Shown here: positions 1 to 33,280 of the stretch, piece after piece
Layout of the letters: each line of letters begins with the position of its first letter
Numbering within the stretch: position 1 is the stretch's first letter
Assembly: GCF_053078305.1 (NCBI RefSeq)
Contig: NZ_CP166879.1
Direction: 5' to 3' (one strand)
Length of the DNA: 64,000 nucleotides
Notes under the pieces: generated by a model
Databases searched by the model: none
Seen by the model: the letters and a program-made list of their open reading frames with translations, nothing else
What the model was told of the DNA's origin: nothing
Program-made: the position numbers and the translations under genes

Positions 1-1909
1 TATGCTGGGATTCACCAGGCCAGGCGCGTATTAATGGCGTCAGTTTGCGGGCGGTGTCATCGTTACCAAGAACGCCTAACGCAGTGAACGCCCAACTCTC
101 TTTCGACGGTGCGCCCGCAGTCAACCAGGCGGTAAACAGATCCCAGGCAAATTCAGCCAGTGAGTCGGCGGTACAGGCATCTTTCACCTGCAATAATCCC
201 GGATACAGGGCCTCTTCCTGAGGGAAGCGGAGCATTTCACCGAGGTGCTGGAGTGCGCTATCTGGCAGTACCTTGCTGCTATTTTTGATTTTCGGGCGAG
301 TCCATAATGGAGGTTGATAAAACAACGGTAAAGGGGGGATTTTCGCCGGGTATTTACCCACAGGACTGTTGTCGTTATTTTTATTTTGAGTTTCCCAGGG
401 CGGCGAGACTAGTACCATTGGTAGAATTTCTGAGTTTGCAAAATCTTCATTGCGACTATTCAGCAATTGCTGACATTGTTGCAATAAATTTGCCGCTTGC
501 GACGATAATCCGATGACTAATTTTTCAACCAATAAAGGATTTGCATTAAGTAATGAAACCAGCAACGTATGTTTGCGTTTATCATCTTTTTTTACCAATG
601 CTTCGGCTAATGCCGCTATCGTGGCAGAAGGAAAATTTTCGGCACTTTTTATTAGTCGTTCATAACAGCGTTTATTAGTATCGGCGGCTTCGATGAGTGC
701 CGTAATGGCCAACGGATGATTAATACATTTCAGTACGTCACCGCAATTATCTTCTTCAGCATAGGGAGCCAGGCGAGCCAGTGCCGCTATACCTTGCTCC
801 CGTAATACCGTAGCTGACCAACTGGCACCATAGGTGTTAAATACATCAATGTATTGATAGTTCTCCAGTATTTCGAGCGTGAATGGATCTGTCGCTACCA
901 GTTTCAACATTTCAAGTTGTGGAACATCTGCGACCTGGTGTAAACGATGTACGATCTCATGGGCCACTTCGGGTATTTCTGGCATTAAAATGGCAATTAA
1001 CGGTTGGCGAAAGAGTGATATATCTGGTAACGCAACGAGTAATTTTGCAATGCAATTTTGCCATACTTCTTCTTCTGCTAGTGATAAATGTTTACGCAGA
1101 CGTAAACTAAATTTGTCGTTATTCCTTCTATAACTGTCCTTGCTGCTATCTGCATAATTAATAAAGAAAGTCAAAAGTTCATCTTTATAGTCAAAATCGA
1201 AATCAATTTGCCACCAGAAGATGACAGTTTCAGTTGCGTATTCGATACCGAAGGTGCTTACAATTTCATCCAGCAACTCGGATGAGGTTTCATCATTCCA
1301 GCCCTGACAAAAACATATTTCCAGAAAAGTAAGTACCGCCATAGTACGCGCGGGTATCTCAGTCTTTTGGGCCTTAATTAAGCTGATTGCCTGGCTAATC
1401 GCATCAGCCCATTCATCAGAGCATGAGCTGTAATCGAAAGTCAGATTTTTATAATAATGATAAGTACGATTTGCCAATCGGGAAATTAAATTTTGTTTCT
1501 CGGGTTTGGTTGGTTTTTTTACTGGCTCTCCCGGCCAAAGGCGGTGGCTGAGGGCATGGCGGGCAATATTCGGGGGAAGAATAATGGGATCGTTGTCTGC
1601 CAGCCAGGGTAAACCATTAGTTGCTGCCTGGCGATTTATTGAGGCTTTTTCCTCTGTGACCAGGACTTTCTTTGCTGAGGCATCATGTGAGTGAGCGTTA
1701 GCGTCTACTTGCTCCACATACCCCTTCTTCACCTTCTCCGCAATCAGCTTCAGTTCCGCTTTTTCTGCCGCCGCAGCATCAGCAAAGCTTTTTACCTGAC
1801 TTTGCCCGTTAGTGCCGACTTTGCCCCAGTTGATATGCAGCTCGTTTCTCTGCTGCTCCACCGCCCAGAATTTATGTGATTTTTCGTCCTGATAAATATA
1901 GGTTTTCAT
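1..1909 (-). CDS. yehI: Large WGR-domain protein, N-terminal part only (gene runs off the window start); paralog of molR
   Basis: ATG at 1909 on the minus strand; translation begins MKTYIYQDEKSHKFWAVEQQRNELHINWGKVGT, a WGR-type motif. Open frame continues to position 1 with no stop. Nucleotide sequence is near-identical to the 5' end of the adjacent molR. Confidence 0.7.
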   Translation of the reverse strand, partial: MKTYIYQDEKSHKFWAVEQQRNELHINWGKVGTNGQSQVKSFADAAAAEKAELKLIAEKVKKGYVEQVDANAHSHDASAKKVLVTEEKASINRQAATNGLPWLADNDPIILPPNIARHALSHRLWPGEPVKKPTKPEKQNLISRLANRTYHYYKNLTFDYSSCSDEWADAISQAISLIKAQKTEIPARTMAVLTFLEICFCQGWNDETSSELLDEIVSTFGIEYATETVIFWWQIDFDFDYKDELLTFFINYADSSKDSYRRNNDKFSLRLRKHLSLAEEEVWQNCIAKLLVALPDISLFRQPLIAILMPEIPEVAHEIVHRLHQVADVPQLEMLKLVATDPFTLEILENYQYIDVFNTYGASWSATVLREQGIAALARLAPYAEEDNCGDVLKCINHPLAITALIEAADTNKRCYERLIKSAENFPSATIAALAEALVKKDDKRKHTLLVSLLNANPLLVEKLVIGLSSQAANLLQQCQQLLNSRNEDFANSEILPMVLVSPPWETQNKNNDNSPVGKYPAKIPPLPLFYQPPLWTRPKIKNSSKVLPDSALQHLGEMLRFPQEEALYPGLLQVKDACTADSLAEFAWDLFTAWLTAGAPSKESWAFTALGVLGNDDTARKLTPLIRAWPGESQH

Positions 1910-1921
1910 TGCTAAATCCTT

Positions 1922-4900
1922 TTAATCAAACAGTGATTCAATGTCGTTAATCAGCTCGCTGGCGGTGATGTCGTCGAGCACGGAGAAAGTGGGTGAGGAT
2001 TGTTTACCATAGCGATCATAAGGGGCGGTGATTTTTACGCTTTCGACAGGCAGCAGGTCGCTATACCCCGTTTCGCCATAAATTAATGAAAAAGGTTCTG
2101 TTTCAAGTTCGAGAGCACCATAAGGGGTAGATTTGCGCATCGCATAGACGCTGCCGCTTTCTTCCAGACGTTGCCAGCCTCTGCGTTCCAGCCCGACAAT
2201 GCGTCCGGCCTGGCAAAGCCGTCCTTGCCAGCGTGTCAGTTCGTGAGTATTACGTTCATTGTCAGCAAGGTGATAGCTACCTCGCTCGAGCTGTTGGAAA
2301 GGGGGAAGCAGTTCGTAATCAACGTAAATTTGCCTGAATGCAGCGGCGGATTCAGGGGGGATTTCCAGCACATGCGGTATACCGATGTTTCCTGCTGGCA
2401 GCGTGAATAACTCATCCTGCGCATCGCTGTAAGTGCTGTCTTCTGCCACGCGAAAACAGGTGATAAGGGCGTTTTCATCGTTATAAACCCCCCATAACAG
2501 CCGTCGGGTTAAGTGACGTACCAGCGGATGCTCCACCAGAAACAGGCGGAACTGCTCTGCCGTCCATCGTCTGCGCTGGCACATAGCCTGTTCCAGACGG
2601 GTAATTTGCTGGCTGGCGATAGCACGAACATCTTTTTTCAACTGTTTGAAGAGATTAACCGCGTCAGTTGCCTGATTTTTTTCATCGCTCTGGTTTGGTT
2701 TGGGCAAATCTTTCAGGACTTTGCCGTTTGCGTCGCGCACTACAGGTTTTAAAGTTTCGTCAAAACCAACGGTAAATTGACGTGGGCCGAAATCCAGTGT
2801 CAGCGAGCCACTGCTATCAAGCCCTAAATCCGGTGCCAGGCGATCTTCCAGTTCGGCCATAGTCAGCCCACGGTTTTCAGCGACCATATTGATTCTGTCG
2901 CTGGCATGTTCCTGTAATGCAACGAATTTAATCTTTTGCGCAATGCCATTAAGCAACATAAGCGCAATGTCGCTACCGATACTGGCTAACACATCCAGCC
3001 CGTACACCGCCCGTTTATGCTGGGATTCCCCAGGCCAGGCGCGGATAAGCGGGGTTAATTTACGCGCGGTGTCGTCATTGCCTAAAATCCCAAGCGAAGT
3101 AAATGCCCAGTTTTCTTTTGCGGGTGCGCCAGCTTCTGTCCAGGCGGTATACAGATCCCAGCCAAATTCAGCCAGTGATTTGCGGGTGAAGATTTCTCTA
3201 ATGATATCCAGCCCAGCGTAGGCGGTAATGTCGCGAGGAAAGCTCAGCATAGTGCCGAGGTGGCGCATAGCGTCATCTGACAGAGGCAGGTTGTTACTTT
3301 TAAGCCGAGGTCTGCGCCACAAGGTGAACTGATAAAAGCCGGACAGTGGGGCGATTTTAGCGGGATATTCTTCCAGTGGGTCGCTATCGAACAATGTTGC
3401 CAGCGCAGCTAAAACATCAGGTTGATTATATCCTTGCGCGATTTCCTCAATCGTTTCTCGCTGGTTTAAATTCACCAGCAGACGAAGCGCCTGGTGGGCA
3501 CAATCACGATCTTTTCCTTTTTTGCCCAGGGCCACAGGAAGTAGCCCGGCGGCGGCATGGCGTGGATAATCAGTTAGCCAGTTTCGCGCATCTTCATAAG
3601 ACATTTTTTTCTGTAATTGTTGCGCCATCGGTAAGGCCAGTTCACTGACACCGAGGAAAAAGGGGAAGAAGCACAGACGTCGTGGATCACGTTGCAGGCA
3701 GGCCATAAATGCAGGTATGGCGGCGCTACCAAAAATTGCCAGAATATTTCCCTCACCAGAGTAGTTATCTTCTTTGACTATCTGGTTAAGAAAAGAAATG
3801 GCCTGTTGACCAGGCAGGTAACAGAGGGCAATGAGATTCCAGCTTTTGTATGCATTGTTATGATATTGCACAAATTCAGCATTGAGTGCTGGAAAATCGA
3901 AGCGTAGCAGGGCATCAACGGCGCTTTGTGGCGCCGGAATTTTTTCGTATATTTTTTCTCCGCTTTCCCGCCATTTTTCAAAACCAAGATGCCACAGTAT
4001 TTGTTGCTCCGGTGTAAGCGGTATTAAGTGTTTCTCCCAGCTTGCTTTTTTGATCGGCGGCAGGTCGGTAAACAATGTTTGTTTTGTCGCCTGCTGTTGG
4101 GCTATTTGCTGGAAGTGGGTGACAAGGTAAGTACGGGTCAGTTTTTTGGTAATCTCTGGAGTGACATCAGAAACAGAAGGAACTGGAAGCACTGGAAGAT
4201 CAAACACAGGCGTATTTTTCTTTTTCTCTTTGGTCATCCAGGGCGGCGAAACAAGCAGCTCCGGCAACATATCCACAGTGGCATATTCACATTCTTCAGC
4301 TACTGGCTGCGGACGACATTCAGATAAGATGCCAGCGGCTTTGGCGTTAACCCAGGGAATAACGTCAGTGACTAACTCTGGCGTAGCGGTAATCAGTTTG
4401 ACAAGCGCTTTACGCCACTCTTTATCTTCATGTATTGCCAGCAAAGTAGCATAAGCCGCAATAGCCGCAGCGGGATGCTTTTGACTGGCCTTGCTTAAGT
4501 ATTCCAGGTGCTTTTTCTTACCAATTACACCGAGGATCAGAATTTGAATCGCATCCGGGTGATTCGTTTTCCATAGCCATTTGACAAGATTTTCAGTCTC
4601 GCTGATGCGTTCGAAGAGATAAGTGGGATTGTCAGAATGGTCTTCCGTAAACTCAAGAAGTATCCGGCTTACACCGCGCACCCCATTATTTGCCAACAAC
4701 ATTGCCAGATAAGCGCGAAAATTACGAAAATCACGATACAACGGTGGGAAGTCGTATTTTTCCACTGTACTCAGAGCAGTATCATCGGTTATCACCAGTC
4801 TTAACCAGGTCATCGCCGGGACGTTTTGATCTGCATAGCGTAGAGCTATAGCATGGGCGATATCCGGGCGTTCAGGGAGCAGTAACGCCGCAAAAGGTTG

Positions 4901-24693: not shown

Positions 24694-24845
24694 TACGCCT
24701 CATACGAACAGCACCACCCCGTAGGACGGATAAGGCGTTTACACTGCATCCGGCAACCTATGCCTGATGCGACGCGGAAGCGTCTTATCATGCCTACGCA
24801 GCGCTGCCACATATGTTTACGCCGCATCCGGCATAAAAACACGCA
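24690..24845. repeat. Cluster of REP (BIME-like) extragenic palindromes
   Basis: Repeated gcctgatgcgacgc / gcatccggca-type palindromic units between fbaB and gatY. Confidence 0.6.
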
Positions 24846-24944
24846 CACTTCGTTACGGCTTCCCCTGGGAGGCCGTTTTTTTTGCCTGTCATTCTGGTTT
24901 AATTTTCATATTGTCGTTTTTGTGATCGTTATCTCGACATTTAA

Positions 24945-27144
<2,200 letters not shown>

Positions 27145-27153
27145 GGACGGTAT

Positions 27154-27606
27154 ATGACTAACCTGTTTGTTCGTAGCGGAATTTCTTTTGTCGATCGTAG
27201 CGAAGTTTTAACCCATATCGGTAATGAGATGCTCGCGAAAGGTGTGGTTCATGATACCTGGCCACAGGCATTAATTGCAAGAGAAGCAGAATTCCCTACT
27301 GGGATAATGCTTGAGCAGCACGCCATTGCAATACCGCATTGTGAGGCGATTCATGCTAAGTCGTCAGCCATTTATCTGTTAAGGCCAACAAATAAAGTTC
27401 ATTTTCAGCAAGCGGATGATGATAATGACGTGGCGGTATCGTTGGTTATTGCGTTGATTGTGGAAAATCCGCAGCAGCAATTGAAACTTTTACGCTGTTT
27501 ATTTGGCAAGTTACAACAGCCCGATATCGTTGAGACACTAATCACTCTTCCTGAAACTCAGTTAAAGGAATACTTCACAAAGTATGTTTTAGATTCAGAC
27601 GAATAA
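27154..27606 (+). CDS. gatA: Galactitol PTS enzyme IIA
   Basis: 150 aa. Confidence 0.93.
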   Translation: MTNLFVRSGISFVDRSEVLTHIGNEMLAKGVVHDTWPQALIAREAEFPTGIMLEQHAIAIPHCEAIHAKSSAIYLLRPTNKVHFQQADDDNDVAVSLVIALIVENPQQQLKLLRCLFGKLQQPDIVETLITLPETQLKEYFTKYVLDSDE

Positions 27607-27636
27607 ATCCCTCTGTAACAATAAAAAGGACTATTT

Positions 27637-27921
27637 ATGAAACGCAAAATTATTGTCGCTTGCGGAGGCGCGGTTGCGACCTCTACGATGGCGGCGGAAG
27701 AAATTAAAGAGTTGTGTCAGAGTCATAATATTCCTGTTGAATTAATCCAGTGTCGGGTTAATGAAATAGAAACCTATATGGATGGCGTGCATTTGATATG
27801 CACCACTGCCAAAGTGGATCGTAGTTTTGGCGATATTCCATTAGTTCACGGCATGCCTTTTGTTTCTGGTGTCGGTATCGAAGCATTACAAAATAAAATT
27901 CTGACTATCTTACAGGGGTGA
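27637..27921 (+). CDS. gatB: Galactitol PTS enzyme IIB
   Basis: 94 aa; N-terminal cysteine ([11 protein letters not shown]). Confidence 0.93.
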
Positions 27922-27924
27922 CCT

Positions 27925-29280
27925 ATGTTTTCAGAAGTCATGCGTTATATTCTCGATCTCGGCCCTACGGTGATGTTGCCGATTGTCATCATTATTTTTT
28001 CTAAAATTTTAGGCATGAAGGCAGGCGATTGCTTTAAAGCGGGTCTGCATATCGGGATTGGCTTTGTTGGCATTGGCCTTGTGATTGGCTTAATGCTGGA
28101 TTCCATTGGCCCGGCGGCGAAAGCGATGGCGGAAAATTTCGACCTGAATCTGCATGTGGTCGATGTCGGCTGGCCGGGCTCTTCACCAATGACCTGGGCG
28201 TCGCAAATTGCGCTGGTGGCGATTCCGATTGCGATTCTGGTTAACGTGGCGATGTTACTGACCCGTATGACGCGGGTGGTAAATGTTGATATCTGGAATA
28301 TCTGGCATATGACCTTCACCGGCGCGTTGCTGCATCTGGCAACCGGTTCATGGATGATAGGGATGGCGGGAGTGGTAATTCACGCGGCGTTTGTTTATAA
28401 GCTCGGCGACTGGTTTGCCCGCGATACCCGAAATTTCTTTGAGCTGGAAGGCATTGCTATTCCGCACGGTACGTCGGCGTATATGGGGCCGATTGCGGTG
28501 CTGGTCGATGCCATTATCGAGAAAATCCCAGGCGTAAACCGTATTAAATTTAGCGCCGACGATATTCAGCGCAAATTTGGCCCGTTTGGCGAGCCTGTCA
28601 CCGTGGGTTTTGTGATGGGGCTGATTATCGGCATCCTCGCGGATTACGATGTCAAAGGTGTATTGCAGCTGGCGGTAAAAACGGCGGCAGTTATGCTGCT
28701 GATGCCACGGGTGATTAAACCCATCATGGATGGTTTAACGCCCATCGCTAAGCAGGCCCGTAGTCGTTTACAGGCGAAGTTCGGCGGTCAGGAGTTCCTG
28801 ATTGGCCTGGATCCCGCATTACTGCTGGGGCATACGGCGGTGGTATCGGCAAGCCTGATTTTTATTCCACTCACCATTTTAATTGCTGTTTGTGTGCCGG
28901 GTAATCAGGTGCTGCCGTTTGGCGATCTTGCCACTATCGGCTTCTTCGTGGCGATGGCGGTCGCGGTGCATCGTGGAAATCTGTTCCGCACCTTAATCTC
29001 GGGTGTCATCATTATGAGCATCACCCTGTGGATCGCGACGCAAACTATTGGTTTGCACACCCAACTGGCGGCTAATGCTGGGGCGTTAAAAGCCGGGGGT
29101 ATGGTGGCTTCAATGGATCAGGGCGGTTCTCCCATTACCTGGTTACTGATTCAGGTTTTCTCCCCGCAAAATATTCCCGGTTTCATTATTATCGGCGCAA
29201 TTTATCTTACCGGTATTTTCATGACCTGGCGTAGAGCGCGTGGCTTTATTAAACAAGAGAAAGTCGTTCTCGCAGAATAA
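27925..29280 (+). CDS. gatC: Galactitol PTS enzyme IIC
   Basis: 451-aa membrane protein. Confidence 0.93.
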   Translation: MFSEVMRYILDLGPTVMLPIVIIIFSKILGMKAGDCFKAGLHIGIGFVGIGLVIGLMLDSIGPAAKAMAENFDLNLHVVDVGWPGSSPMTWASQIALVAIPIAILVNVAMLLTRMTRVVNVDIWNIWHMTFTGALLHLATGSWMIGMAGVVIHAAFVYKLGDWFARDTRNFFELEGIAIPHGTSAYMGPIAVLVDAIIEKIPGVNRIKFSADDIQRKFGPFGEPVTVGFVMGLIIGILADYDVKGVLQLAVKTAAVMLLMPRVIKPIMDGLTPIAKQARSRLQAKFGGQEFLIGLDPALLLGHTAVVSASLIFIPLTILIAVCVPGNQVLPFGDLATIGFFVAMAVAVHRGNLFRTLISGVIIMSITLWIATQTIGLHTQLAANAGALKAGGMVASMDQGGSPITWLLIQVFSPQNIPGFIIIGAIYLTGIFMTWRRARGFIKQEKVVLAE

Positions 29281-29327
29281 TTTTTACCTGAGGGGGAGGT
29301 TATCCCCCTTAACAATCAGGAGTTTTT

Positions 29328-30368
29328 ATGAAATCAGTGGTGAATGATACTGATGGTATCGTGCGCGTTGCAGAAAGCGTCATTCCTGAAATTAAACATC
29401 AGGATGAGGTGCGGGTAAAAATTGCCAGCTCGGGCTTATGTGGTTCCGATTTACCCAGGATATTTAAAAATGGTGCACATTATTATCCAATAACGTTAGG
29501 CCATGAATTTAGCGGCTATATTGATGCGGTGGGATCCGGTGTTGATGATTTACATCCTGGCGATGCGGTTGCCTGTGTGCCGTTATTACCCTGTTTTACT
29601 TGTCCAGAGTGTCTGAAAGGGTTTTATTCCCAGTGCGCAAAATATGATTTTATTGGCTCACGGCGTGATGGTGGATTTGCCGAATATATTGTCGTTAAGC
29701 GGAAAAATGTCTTTGCTCTACCCACGGATATGCCTATTGAGGATGGGGCTTTTATTGAACCGATTACCGTTGGCCTGCATGCTTTTCATTTAGCGCAAGG
29801 TTGTGAGAATAAAAACGTTATTATTATTGGTGCCGGAACCATTGGCCTGCTGGCTATTCAGTGCGCTGTCGCGCTGGGAGCAAAGAGTGTGACGGCGATC
29901 GACATTAGCTCAGAAAAACTGGCACTGGCAAAATCTTTCGGTGCGATGCAAACATTTAACAGTAGCGAAATGAGCGCGCCGCAAATGCAGGGCGTTTTAC
30001 GCGAGCTGCGCTTTAATCAGCTTATCCTCGAGACGGCTGGCGTACCGCAAACTGTGGAACTGGCGGTAGAGATTGCCGGTCCTCATGCCCAACTGGCGCT
30101 GGTGGGCACGTTGCATCAGGATCTGCATTTAACATCGGCAACGTTTGGCAAAATATTGCGTAAAGAGCTGACGGTTATCGGCAGTTGGATGAACTACTCC
30201 AGCCCTTGGCCGGGGCAGGAGTGGGAAACGGCGAGCCGGTTGCTGACAGAACGTAAGTTAAGCCTGGAGCCATTAATCGCTCACCGTGGAAGCTTTGAAA
30301 GCTTCGCCCAGGCGGTGCGTGACATAGCTCGTAATGCTATGCCGGGCAAAGTGTTGCTCATTCCCTGA
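29328..30368 (+). CDS. gatD: Galactitol-1-phosphate 5-dehydrogenase (Zn-dependent)
   Basis: 346 aa with a Zn-ADH-like motif (GHEFSGYI) and a GxGxxG Rossmann signature. Confidence 0.93.
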   Translation: MKSVVNDTDGIVRVAESVIPEIKHQDEVRVKIASSGLCGSDLPRIFKNGAHYYPITLGHEFSGYIDAVGSGVDDLHPGDAVACVPLLPCFTCPECLKGFYSQCAKYDFIGSRRDGGFAEYIVVKRKNVFALPTDMPIEDGAFIEPITVGLHAFHLAQGCENKNVIIIGAGTIGLLAIQCAVALGAKSVTAIDISSEKLALAKSFGAMQTFNSSEMSAPQMQGVLRELRFNQLILETAGVPQTVELAVEIAGPHAQLALVGTLHQDLHLTSATFGKILRKELTVIGSWMNYSSPWPGQEWETASRLLTERKLSLEPLIAHRGSFESFAQAVRDIARNAMPGKVLLIP

Positions 30369-30467
30369 AACCGCGGGCCAGCGTGATGCTGGCCCGGTAT
30401 TGTGCAAAACAGATCATTCACCAATGGTCCCCCTTCGTTTACACTAGCCACAATTGAATATGGGTAA

Positions 30468-31247
30468 ATGACGATGAATTCATTCGAGCGAAGGAATAAG
30501 ATCATCCAATTAGTGAATGAACAGGGAACCGTGCTTGTTCAGGATCTGGCGGGAGTATTTGCTGCCTCGGAAGCGACAATCCGTGCCGATTTGCGCTTTC
30601 TCGAACAAAAAGGCGTGGTTACGCGCTTTCATGGCGGTGCGGCGAAAATAATGTCCGGTAATAGTGAAACCGAGACCCAGGAAGTCGGGTTTAAAGAGCG
30701 ATTTCAGCTCGCCAGCGCGCCAAAAAACAGAATAGCGCAGGCGGCAGTCAAAATGATCCACGAAGGGATGACCGTTATTCTCGACAGCGGAAGTACGACA
30801 ATGCTTATCGCCGAAGGATTAATGACCGCCAAAAATATCACGGTGATTACCAACAGTCTCCCGGCAGCGTTTGCCCTTTCCGAAAATAAAGATATTACTC
30901 TGGTCGTCTGTGGTGGCACCGTCCGCCATAAAACGCGCTCGATGCATGGTTTCATTGCCGAGCGTTCATTGCAGGATATTAATGCCGATTTAATGTTTGT
31001 CGGTGCTGATGGTATTGATGCGGTTAATGGTATTACGACCTTTAATGAAGGTTATTCGATTAGCGGGGCGATGGTCACCGCCGCTAATAAAGTGATTGCC
31101 GTTCTCGATTCATCGAAATTTAACCGTCGCGGTTTTAATCAGGTACTGCCAATCGAAAAAATTGACATTATTATTACCGATGATGCTGTGTCAGAGGTGG
31201 ATAAACTGGCATTGCAGAAGACACGGGTAAAATTAATTACGGTGTAG
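30468..31247 (+). CDS. gatR: DeoR-family repressor of the gat operon, intact
   Basis: Continuous 259-aa ORF. I recall this gene being interrupted by an IS element in K-12; it is uninterrupted here. Confidence 0.88.
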   Translation: MTMNSFERRNKIIQLVNEQGTVLVQDLAGVFAASEATIRADLRFLEQKGVVTRFHGGAAKIMSGNSETETQEVGFKERFQLASAPKNRIAQAAVKMIHEGMTVILDSGSTTMLIAEGLMTAKNITVITNSLPAAFALSENKDITLVVCGGTVRHKTRSMHGFIAERSLQDINADLMFVGADGIDAVNGITTFNEGYSISGAMVTAANKVIAVLDSSKFNRRGFNQVLPIEKIDIIITDDAVSEVDKLALQKTRVKLITV

Positions 31248-31254
31248 TATTGTT

Positions 31255-31295
31255 CTGTATGCCGGATAAGGTGTTTACACCGCATCCGGCATTAC
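31255..31295. repeat. REP element
   Basis: gccggataaggtgtttacaccgcatccggc palindromic unit. Confidence 0.5.
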
Positions 31296-31328: not shown

Positions 31329-32228
31329 TTAACGCAATAATGGACAATCTGGTGGTAATCGACAACGCAACGCCGCCGGAAGTATTTCAATATGGAAGTT
31401 TTGCCCACTCAACGGTTCGCCATCAAGATTAAAAGTGATTTCGTGTGGGGCTTGTATATCAAACCACGACGAAGCGCCTTCGATAATATTCGGGTTATCT
31501 TCGTCAGATTTTAAGGTTGATACGAGAGCCGGAAGAATTTCATCGCCGGTAAAAATGCGCAGTTGCAGCAAGCCATCGTTAATTAACGCGTTCGGGCACA
31601 ATTGTTGACCGCCACCGGCCTGACGCCCGTTACCAATACCAATGACCAGGGCGTCACCTTGCCAGTGAAAGTTTTCACCGCGGATTTCACAACGGTCCGG
31701 TTGCAGAGTATCCATGCGCATTAAGCCATGAATGATGTAAGAGACGCCACCCAGCGCGGCTTTTAATTTTTCCGGCGTTTCTGTGGTAATACGCGTCCCA
31801 AATCCGCCTGTCGCCATATTAATAAAACAGGTTTGTTTGTTGACCTGCGCCATATCTATCGCAATGGCGTTACCGGCAATTGCCAGTTTCAGCGCCTTAT
31901 CCAGTGCCTCAGGAATCCCTACACTGGTGGCAAAATCATTGGCGGTTCCTAATGGCAAAATTCCCAGCGCGGGTATGTCATCCCCCTCACACTGAATCAA
32001 CGCCGTAGAAACTTCATTAATGGTGCCATCGCCACCACCGGCAATCACCGTTGCGACGCCCAACTTCCGGGCCTCCTCTACATATCGTGCGGCATCGCCT
32101 TTCTCCCAGGTGACCCGCACATGGATCGTCATTCCTTCCTCACGCAACAGCATAATTGCTTCGCGCAATGGTAAATTGTCAGTACTTTTGCCATTAAGAA
32201 TCAGTAAGCTGGCGGGAAATTCTGCCAT
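31329..32228 (-). CDS. yegS: Lipid kinase (DAG-kinase-like catalytic domain)
   Basis: 299 aa containing a GGDGT motif. Confidence 0.9.
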
Positions 32229-32951: not shown

Positions 32952-33109
32952 GAATATTTTTTGGTAAGCGTCAAACATGCGCGTTCTGGTTGTGCTTAGC
33001 CGGAACCTGTGCGAGCACGATGCCAATAAGTGAAAGGCATCGTGCTATGAAGGGAAATTCTATCGATGTGGTCAATGGAAGATGGTTACCAGAGATAGGG
33101 CTTATGCAT

Positions 33110-33196
33110 AAAAAATAAGCCCGTGTAAGGGAGATTACACAGGCTAAGGAGGTGGTTCCTGGTACAGCTAGCATTTTATGGGTTATGTTTTTCAGC
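33110..33196 (-). ncRNA. cyaR: CyaR (RyeE) Hfq-dependent small RNA
   Basis: The minus strand reads gctgaaaaacataacccataaaatgctagctgtaccaggaaccacctccttagcctgtgtaatctcccttacacgggcttatttttt, which matches the CyaR sequence as I remember it, including its terminator hairpin and U-tail. Confidence 0.85.
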
Positions 33197-33280
33197 GAAA
33201 CGGATGATAACCTTAATAAATGCAGCTGTATGTGATCGGTTTCTAAGAATTTTCCATCCGGGAAAAATAATCGAAATTAA

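Follow-up and report, generated by a model that had tools for sequence, protein, structure and literature searches.

In the stretch of Escherichia coli DNA analyzed here (64,000 nucleotides of contig NZ_CP166879.1, assembly GCF_053078305.1, hereafter “the window”), an uninterrupted open reading frame (ORF) follows gatD. Judged by its sequence, this ORF is the ancestral, uninterrupted form of gatR, which encodes the DeoR/GlpR-family repressor of the galactitol PTS/catabolic operon gatYZABCD. The gene is known, and its intact state is the known and normal one; the comparison with K-12 is textbook material, and no new biology is suggested. The finding is mainly one of housekeeping: the window derives from an E. 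coli other than K-12, whose gat locus is ancestral and presumably regulated, a reminder that K-12, with its IS3E insertion, and a B-lineage strain, with its IS1A insertion, are atypical at gat. The only lead is a rare, recurrent substitution at a polymorphic position, S160F, which makes a well-defined candidate for natural missense tuning of the gat switch.

The gatR gene in the window and in other strains

In K-12 MG1655, gatR is split by IS3E after nucleotide 299, with a 3-bp GAC duplication, which agrees with the statement in the initial annotation that an IS element disrupts the K-12 gene. The K-12 annotation and the junction sequences place the target GAC triplet at 30770..30772 (+ strand) of the window, where the sequence is continuous. 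The K-12 gene was rebuilt from its two annotated MG1655 fragments by removing the IS3E between them; the 774-nt reconstruction proved nucleotide-identical to gatR of E. coli HS. Window positions 30474-31247 are colinear with it, with 0 indels and 10 substitutions, of which 9 are synonymous and 1 changes an amino acid. No frameshift, indel or premature stop was found against K-12 gatR minus IS3E, HS gatR or gatR of strain 266917_2, all of them 774 nt long and colinear. The careful full-length alignment that had been named beforehand as the test able to refute an intact gatR thus leaves that claim standing.

It had further been stated that the K-12 insertion makes gat expression constitutive. 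Published work does link the two (PMC5850726), and K-12 regains regulated gat expression after its gene is swapped for the intact gatR of E. coli HS (Sousa et al., PMC5850726). The HS protein (WP_001295426.1, equal to K-12 b4498 minus IS3E) is also a close known relative of the one described here, sharing its locus, its length of 257 aa, its domains, an identical upstream spacer and a conserved gatY promoter core. The HS allele is an experimentally functional gat repressor (PMC5850726), from which the window gene differs by S160F and nine synonymous changes.

Interruption of gatR is also seen in NEBExpress, a strain of the B lineage (NZ_CP053599.1; locus 1501-3050), where IS1A has inserted after approximately nt 237 and splits the gene. 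This insertion is independent of the K-12 IS3E, and the repressor has been lost in both classic laboratory lineages. The K-12 and B-lineage alleles represent the same gene at the same genomic position as that of the window, whose copy is continuous whereas theirs are split; constitutive gat expression from a split gatR is reported for the K-12 allele. Among 5,426 complete E. coli genomes, 5,109 contain gatR sequence, which in 4,756 of them is matched over nearly its full length at a single place. Approximately 348 genomes match in two places, as a K-12-type split gene would, a count derived from the place totals. Intact gatR is therefore the norm of the species. The exceptions, K-12 (IS3E) and the B-lineage strain (IS1A), belong to the two classic laboratory lineages, and the window shows the ancestral state. 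An intact gatR, described earlier as a strain-level regulatory difference, is not special to the window strain.

A non-K-12 origin, for which the intact gene had been taken as one sign, is confirmed by the locus as a whole, which is about 98.4% identical to MG1655, lacks IS3E and the PR-X remnant, and has an intact gatC, a pseudogene in MG1655. The PR-X prophage remnant of K-12 (ogrK, yegZ), which follows cyaR in MG1655, is absent from the window, and the CyaR sRNA itself lies at 33113-33198 (- strand), within window positions 33102-33198 (Rfam, 100.7 bits). Over 20-24 kb, the complete E. coli genomes of the RefSeq set reach no more than 98.3-98.4% identity to the window. Within window positions 1-44000, short segments such as gatR reach 99.7% identity to complete genomes. 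Either few complete genomes represent this lineage or the region is a recombination mosaic. Two draft assemblies, GCA_043584345.1 and GCA_043592825.1, match the window locally at 99.97-100% identity.

Extent and identity of the repressor

The longest ATG-initiated ORF spans 30468..31247 (+ strand), encodes 259 aa without interruption and begins 99 nt past the gatD stop at 30368, as given by the ORF listing. The likely gatR coding sequence is two codons shorter, running from the second ATG, 30474, to 31247 (+ strand; 257 aa plus stop). This start is favored because the orthologues share it: MNSFERRNKI forms the first residues of GatR in Citrobacter, Enterobacter, Kosakonia, Phytobacter, Superficieibacter and Scandinavium. 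The orthologous gene in RefSeq is 774 nt long and encodes 257 aa, while public annotations contain both the 257-aa and the 259-aa forms. The initial annotation was thus right about the ORF and its position after gatD, but its 259 aa is simply the longest-ORF call and 257 aa is the likelier length.

That this ORF is a DeoR-type repressor gene directly following gatD is agreed upon by its Pfam domains, the ORF map and the synteny of annotated E. coli chromosomes. The N-terminal part is a DeoR-type winged helix-turn-helix (HTH) domain at 30489..30647 (+ strand; PF08220 HTH_DeoR, residues 8-60 of the 259-aa ORF), matched with an E-value of 1.3e-16 and 60.5 bits for a cut-off of 21. The C-terminal part is the DeoRC effector-sensing domain with its ISOCOT fold, at 30720..31181 (+ strand; PF00455, residues 85-238), with an E-value of 1.1e-50 and 172 bits for a cut-off of 31.8. 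Both Pfam matches are far beyond chance. The AlphaFold2 (AF2) model of GatR, with a pLDDT of 89.5, has three helices (3-17, 22-29 and 33-45) and a beta-hairpin in its N-terminal domain. Its C-terminal domain superimposes on that of E. coli DeoR (7L6L) with a TM-score of 0.88 and an rmsd of 1.7 Å, and it also matches RpiA. When solved structures were searched by sequence with GatR, only the E. coli DeoR C-domain was found.

Membership in the DeoR/GlpR family is apparent from the presence of both HTH_DeoR and DeoRC, the latter with the ISOCOT fold. The same two-domain architecture is found in DeoR, GlpR, AgaR, SrlR, UlaR and CsqR, with the fold seen in the DeoR C-domain 7L6L. By analogy, GatR presumably shares the logic of the DeoR/GlpR repressors, in which operator binding is relieved by a phosphorylated pathway intermediate. 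It is however only 25-40% identical to these sugar-phosphate repressors, and its regulon and inducer differ from theirs.

Could the ORF then be another member of the family, an AgaR-like or SrlR-like paralogue that adjoins the gat genes by chance? Its best NCBIfam matches are indeed the AgaR (NF040755) and SrlR (NF007753) models, and the RefSeq name of the gene says no more than “DeoR/GlpR family” regulator. Neither curated cut-off is reached, however, with 230.8 bits for an AgaR equivalog threshold of 260 and 225.5 bits for an SrlR equivalog threshold of 350, and the protein is therefore a DeoR/GlpR-family member that is neither AgaR nor SrlR. Other public records call it “galactitol utilization operon repressor,” gat synteny is kept, and the protein is 99.6% identical to HS GatR and to the product of the K-12 gene annotated as gatR. 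Orthology with GatR is borne out by the position after gatYZABCD, the near-identity to E. coli gatR and the uninterrupted frame. On sequence grounds, a chance paralogue is effectively refuted by this identity to a genetically characterized gatR locus.

The gat operon and its probable control

Genes in this part of the window are ordered yegT(-), fbaB, gatY, gatZ, gatA, gatB, gatC, gatD, gatR, yegS(-), yegR, CyaR(-) and yegQ/trhP(-), as in the annotated chromosomes of strains 266917_2, MG1655 and HS. The structural genes gatYZABCD, the presumed target operon of GatR, occupy 24999..30368 (+ strand) as six intact reading frames of 284, 420, 150, 94, 451 and 346 aa, the same lengths as in strain 266917_2. 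Codon 240 of gatC (28642-28644) encodes Asp in the window and Gly in most strains. The possibility that this G240D change is a lesion that inactivates gatC and accompanies the gatR variant was considered and rejected: 43 of 5,426 complete genomes, O169:H41 strains among them, share its 57-mer, so it is an established minor allele.

The gatY control region (24902..25000, + strand) was delimited by promoter scan, repeats and coordinates. The promoter scan places the -35 element TCGACA at 24934-24939 and, 18 nt further on, the -10 element CATTAT at 24958-24963, both on the + strand. A CRP-like site, TGTGATCGTTATCTCGACA (TGTGA-N6-TCGACA), lies at 24921-24939 (+ strand). Three sets of repeats built on TTTCAT/ATTTCA are present. 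Two inverted repeats of 18-20 nt, ATTTTCATATTGTCGTTT at 24902-24919 and AAACGACAGGATATGAAAAT at 24981-25000, flank the promoter, and a palindrome, ATTTCA-N8-TGAAAT, lies over the -10 element (24954-24973); all are candidate GatR operators. They are invariant among the window, K-12 and strain 266917_2, and their layout beside the CRP-like site makes them plausible operators in a looping arrangement. The 53-mer of the gatY promoter core (24925-24977) has identical copies in 1,443 complete genomes and is therefore a common allele. The cis elements found here should be competent, because the control region of K-12 itself responds to restored GatR.

Upstream of gatY, the spacer that separates it from fbaB is filled with REP-type palindromic elements (window 24715-24850); strain 266917_2 lacks 78 bp of them, and the K-12 spacer has the same length as that of the window. 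A terminator-like hairpin of fbaB follows at 24855-24876.

At the other end of the operon, the gatD-gatR spacer (30369..30473, + strand) is identical at 105 of 105 nt in the window, HS and K-12. The flanking genes diverge by 1-2%, and the stretch is too short for its full identity to be significant. At 30375-30395 the spacer contains an 8-bp, GC-rich hairpin (GGGCCAGC-gtgat-GCTGGCCC) with no T-tract. A scan of 30369-30473 found neither a consensus sigma-70 promoter that would be dedicated to gatR nor an intrinsic terminator for gatD. Transcription of gatR by read-through from the gatY promoter and transcription from a weak promoter of its own are both possible. Beyond gatR, a REP-type palindrome (GCCGGAT...ATCCGGC, 31261..31290) lies between the convergent gatR and yegS (31329-32228, - strand, from the ORF listing), and is likely to form the hairpin at the transcript end.

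A mechanism for such a locus can be proposed from the analogy to other DeoR-family repressors and from genetic work in the literature. Oligomers of GatR would use their N-terminal winged HTH to bind the repeats around the gatY promoter (24902-25000), which flank or overlap the -35 and -10 elements, and gatY transcription would thereby be blocked. Uptake of galactitol by its PTS would yield a phosphorylated intermediate, either galactitol-1-phosphate or tagatose-6-phosphate, whose binding to the C-terminal ISOCOT-fold sensor domain would release GatR. Catabolite control would be added by CRP-cAMP. Following this analogy, the gat operon of the window is most likely inducible by galactitol, and not constitutive as in K-12.

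The earlier description of the operon as “probably repressible” is supported but not proven, the support coming from six intact gat genes, a gatY core that is a common allele and a gatD-gatR spacer identical to that of HS and K-12. In natural strains LF82 and CFT073, silencing of gatR by CRISPRi has a strong fitness effect (preprint, bioRxiv 10.64898/2026.01.05.697630), which indicates that intact gatR represses in vivo. As far as sequence can tell, the window strain very probably has a functional and inducible repressor.

The regulatory state of the locus is not without consequence. In the gut, constitutive strains quickly lose gat function, and regulated ones quickly yield gatR mutants (PMC5850726, PMC5094792). 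Regulation of gat thus affects fitness in the gut, and so the state of a given strain matters in colonization experiments.

Phenylalanine at residue 160

The single amino-acid difference from HS and K-12 GatR, which leaves 256 of 257 residues identical, is S160F. Codon 160 (257-aa numbering; 30951..30953, + strand) reads TTC for Phe as a result of a C-to-T change at 30952 (C479T), in place of the TCC or TCT (Ser) of HS, K-12 and most E. coli. The substitution is non-conservative. The F160 allele is nevertheless probably tolerated, because residue 160 is naturally polymorphic: S160A is a major E. coli allele, found on 1,000 contigs or more, and there is an S160Y allele as well. Such frequency of S160A implies that the side chain at 160 is not essential. 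A Ser or Thr hydroxyl is found at this position, the N-terminus of a helix, in 127 of 132 GatR-like sequences; as an essential phosphate contact it was considered and rejected, given the abundance of S160A.

How rare is the allele? A 57-mer around codon 160 was dropped for counting, as the synonymous site at nt 498 blurred the identity bands, and F160 was counted instead with 35-mers, in which every 28-nt megablast seed spans the variant, alongside S-allele controls. The TTC 35-mer occurs in 0 complete genomes, while the TCC (Ser) control occurs in 2,872. For the other main local haplotype, Ser TCT was found in 1,965 genomes and Phe TTT in one, UID2309220013 (NZ_CM142663.1; locus 992-4313), a blood isolate from Bangkok whose GatR also carries M99I. 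Exact-protein look-ups found the window GatR on about 23 contigs, F160 together with V196 on 2 and the UID2309220013 protein on 1. F160 is therefore rare, at about 25 contigs. As independent assemblies carry it, S160F is real and not an assembly error, and the allele does persist in nature, with F160 lineages sampled repeatedly, their gatB, gatC and gatD intact.

Two gatR haplotypes encode the window GatR protein. Nine synonymous sites distinguish them, including markers 32 nt before and 19 nt after the S160F change, and the protein is found in three different flanking backgrounds. With at least three haplotypes and two codon routes (TCC to TTC and TCT to TTT), F160 must have arisen at least three times, although codon 160 was searched for specifically, and its recurrence is not to be read as an excess over other sites.

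Residue 160 is immediately preceded by the near-invariant Gly159, within a block, GG..R....S..G..AE, which is the most conserved of the sensor domain. In the AF2 model, a short helix (160-164) follows a beta-hairpin (149-158) and begins with residue 160. At this position the 75 GatR orthologues of other genera carry T, A, V, S or N, and none of the 75 has an aromatic residue. Across 136 DeoR-family representatives, the column contains P (66), S (18), H (7), T (6), A (5), M (5), E (4), F (4) and L (4).

If S160F disturbed folding, oligomerization or allosteric coupling, the repressor would be weakened and gat would become partly or fully constitutive, much as the IS3E insertion makes it in K-12, here through a missense change. 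The proximity of Gly159 and its conserved block is consistent with such damage. Loss of gatR function is quickly selected in the mouse gut (PMC5850726), and gatR silencing is beneficial in LF82 and CFT073 (bioRxiv 10.64898/2026.01.05.697630). The three or more origins of F160 could reflect selection for altered regulation, but a C-to-T transition is expected to recur given the very many E. coli genomes, and plain loss of function should make use of many mutations rather than one recurrent codon. The natural polymorphism of position 160, with its major S160A allele and its four Phe among the 136 family representatives, also argues against a damaging effect, as do the gat genes that stay intact in the window and at other F160 loci.

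One F160 genome, UID2309220013, has its gatC annotated as frameshifted, which corresponds to the step that comes after constitutive expression when K-12 is evolved experimentally. Frameshifts often arise as assembly errors. The gat locus is moreover a documented mutational hotspot, with gatC frameshifts known to recur (PMC5094792), so that this case weighs little in favor of a weakened repressor. The order that it suggests, a repressor change followed by loss of the transporter, is that of K-12 gut evolution, in a single case that could be an assembly error. All in all, a repressor weakened by S160F is unlikely, and a tolerated substitution is the reading retained here.

Rather than repression, the substitution might alter effector sensing, giving a less inducible super-repressor or a shifted sensitivity or specificity toward the inducer. 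Its place in the sensor domain of the model, where it opens helix 160-164 right behind beta-hairpin 149-158, would suit such an effect. In the paralogue CsqR, docking sets the ligand against the counterparts of GatR R151 and T154, which lie in the loop that precedes this helix (PMC10991401), and natural variants R151H, R164H/C and S165L were sampled nearby. One specific substitution that keeps recurring also fits a change of function better than a loss of it. The evidence for the pocket is however a computational docking on a paralogue that is 27% identical, and the frequent S160A indicates that the side chain makes no essential contact with a ligand. Altered sensing is accordingly a remote prospect, and the F160 allele is still best regarded as probably tolerated.

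From the sequence data, it is quite doubtful that S160F is a recurrently selected allele tuning regulation in a gene otherwise under strong purifying selection. Were it to loosen repression or alter inducer sensitivity, the strain would parallel the constitutive state of K-12 by a natural missense change, in spite of its “intact” gene. A study on DgoR, a sugar-acid repressor, in natural E. coli isolates reports that single substitutions in a catabolic repressor can change regulation (PMC12288454). As a repressor of another family (GntR/FadR) and another pathway, DgoR offers a precedent for S160F with no direct bearing on GatR residue 160.

Finally, in a small and non-random sample of public E. 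coli sequences, natural GatR missense variants are concentrated in two short sensor-domain helices. The first cluster covers residues 128-137 (S128G, L129P/F, A132V, F133L, A134V/S/D/T and E137D), and the second covers residues 160-165 (S160F/A/Y, R164H/C and S165L), with R151H besides.
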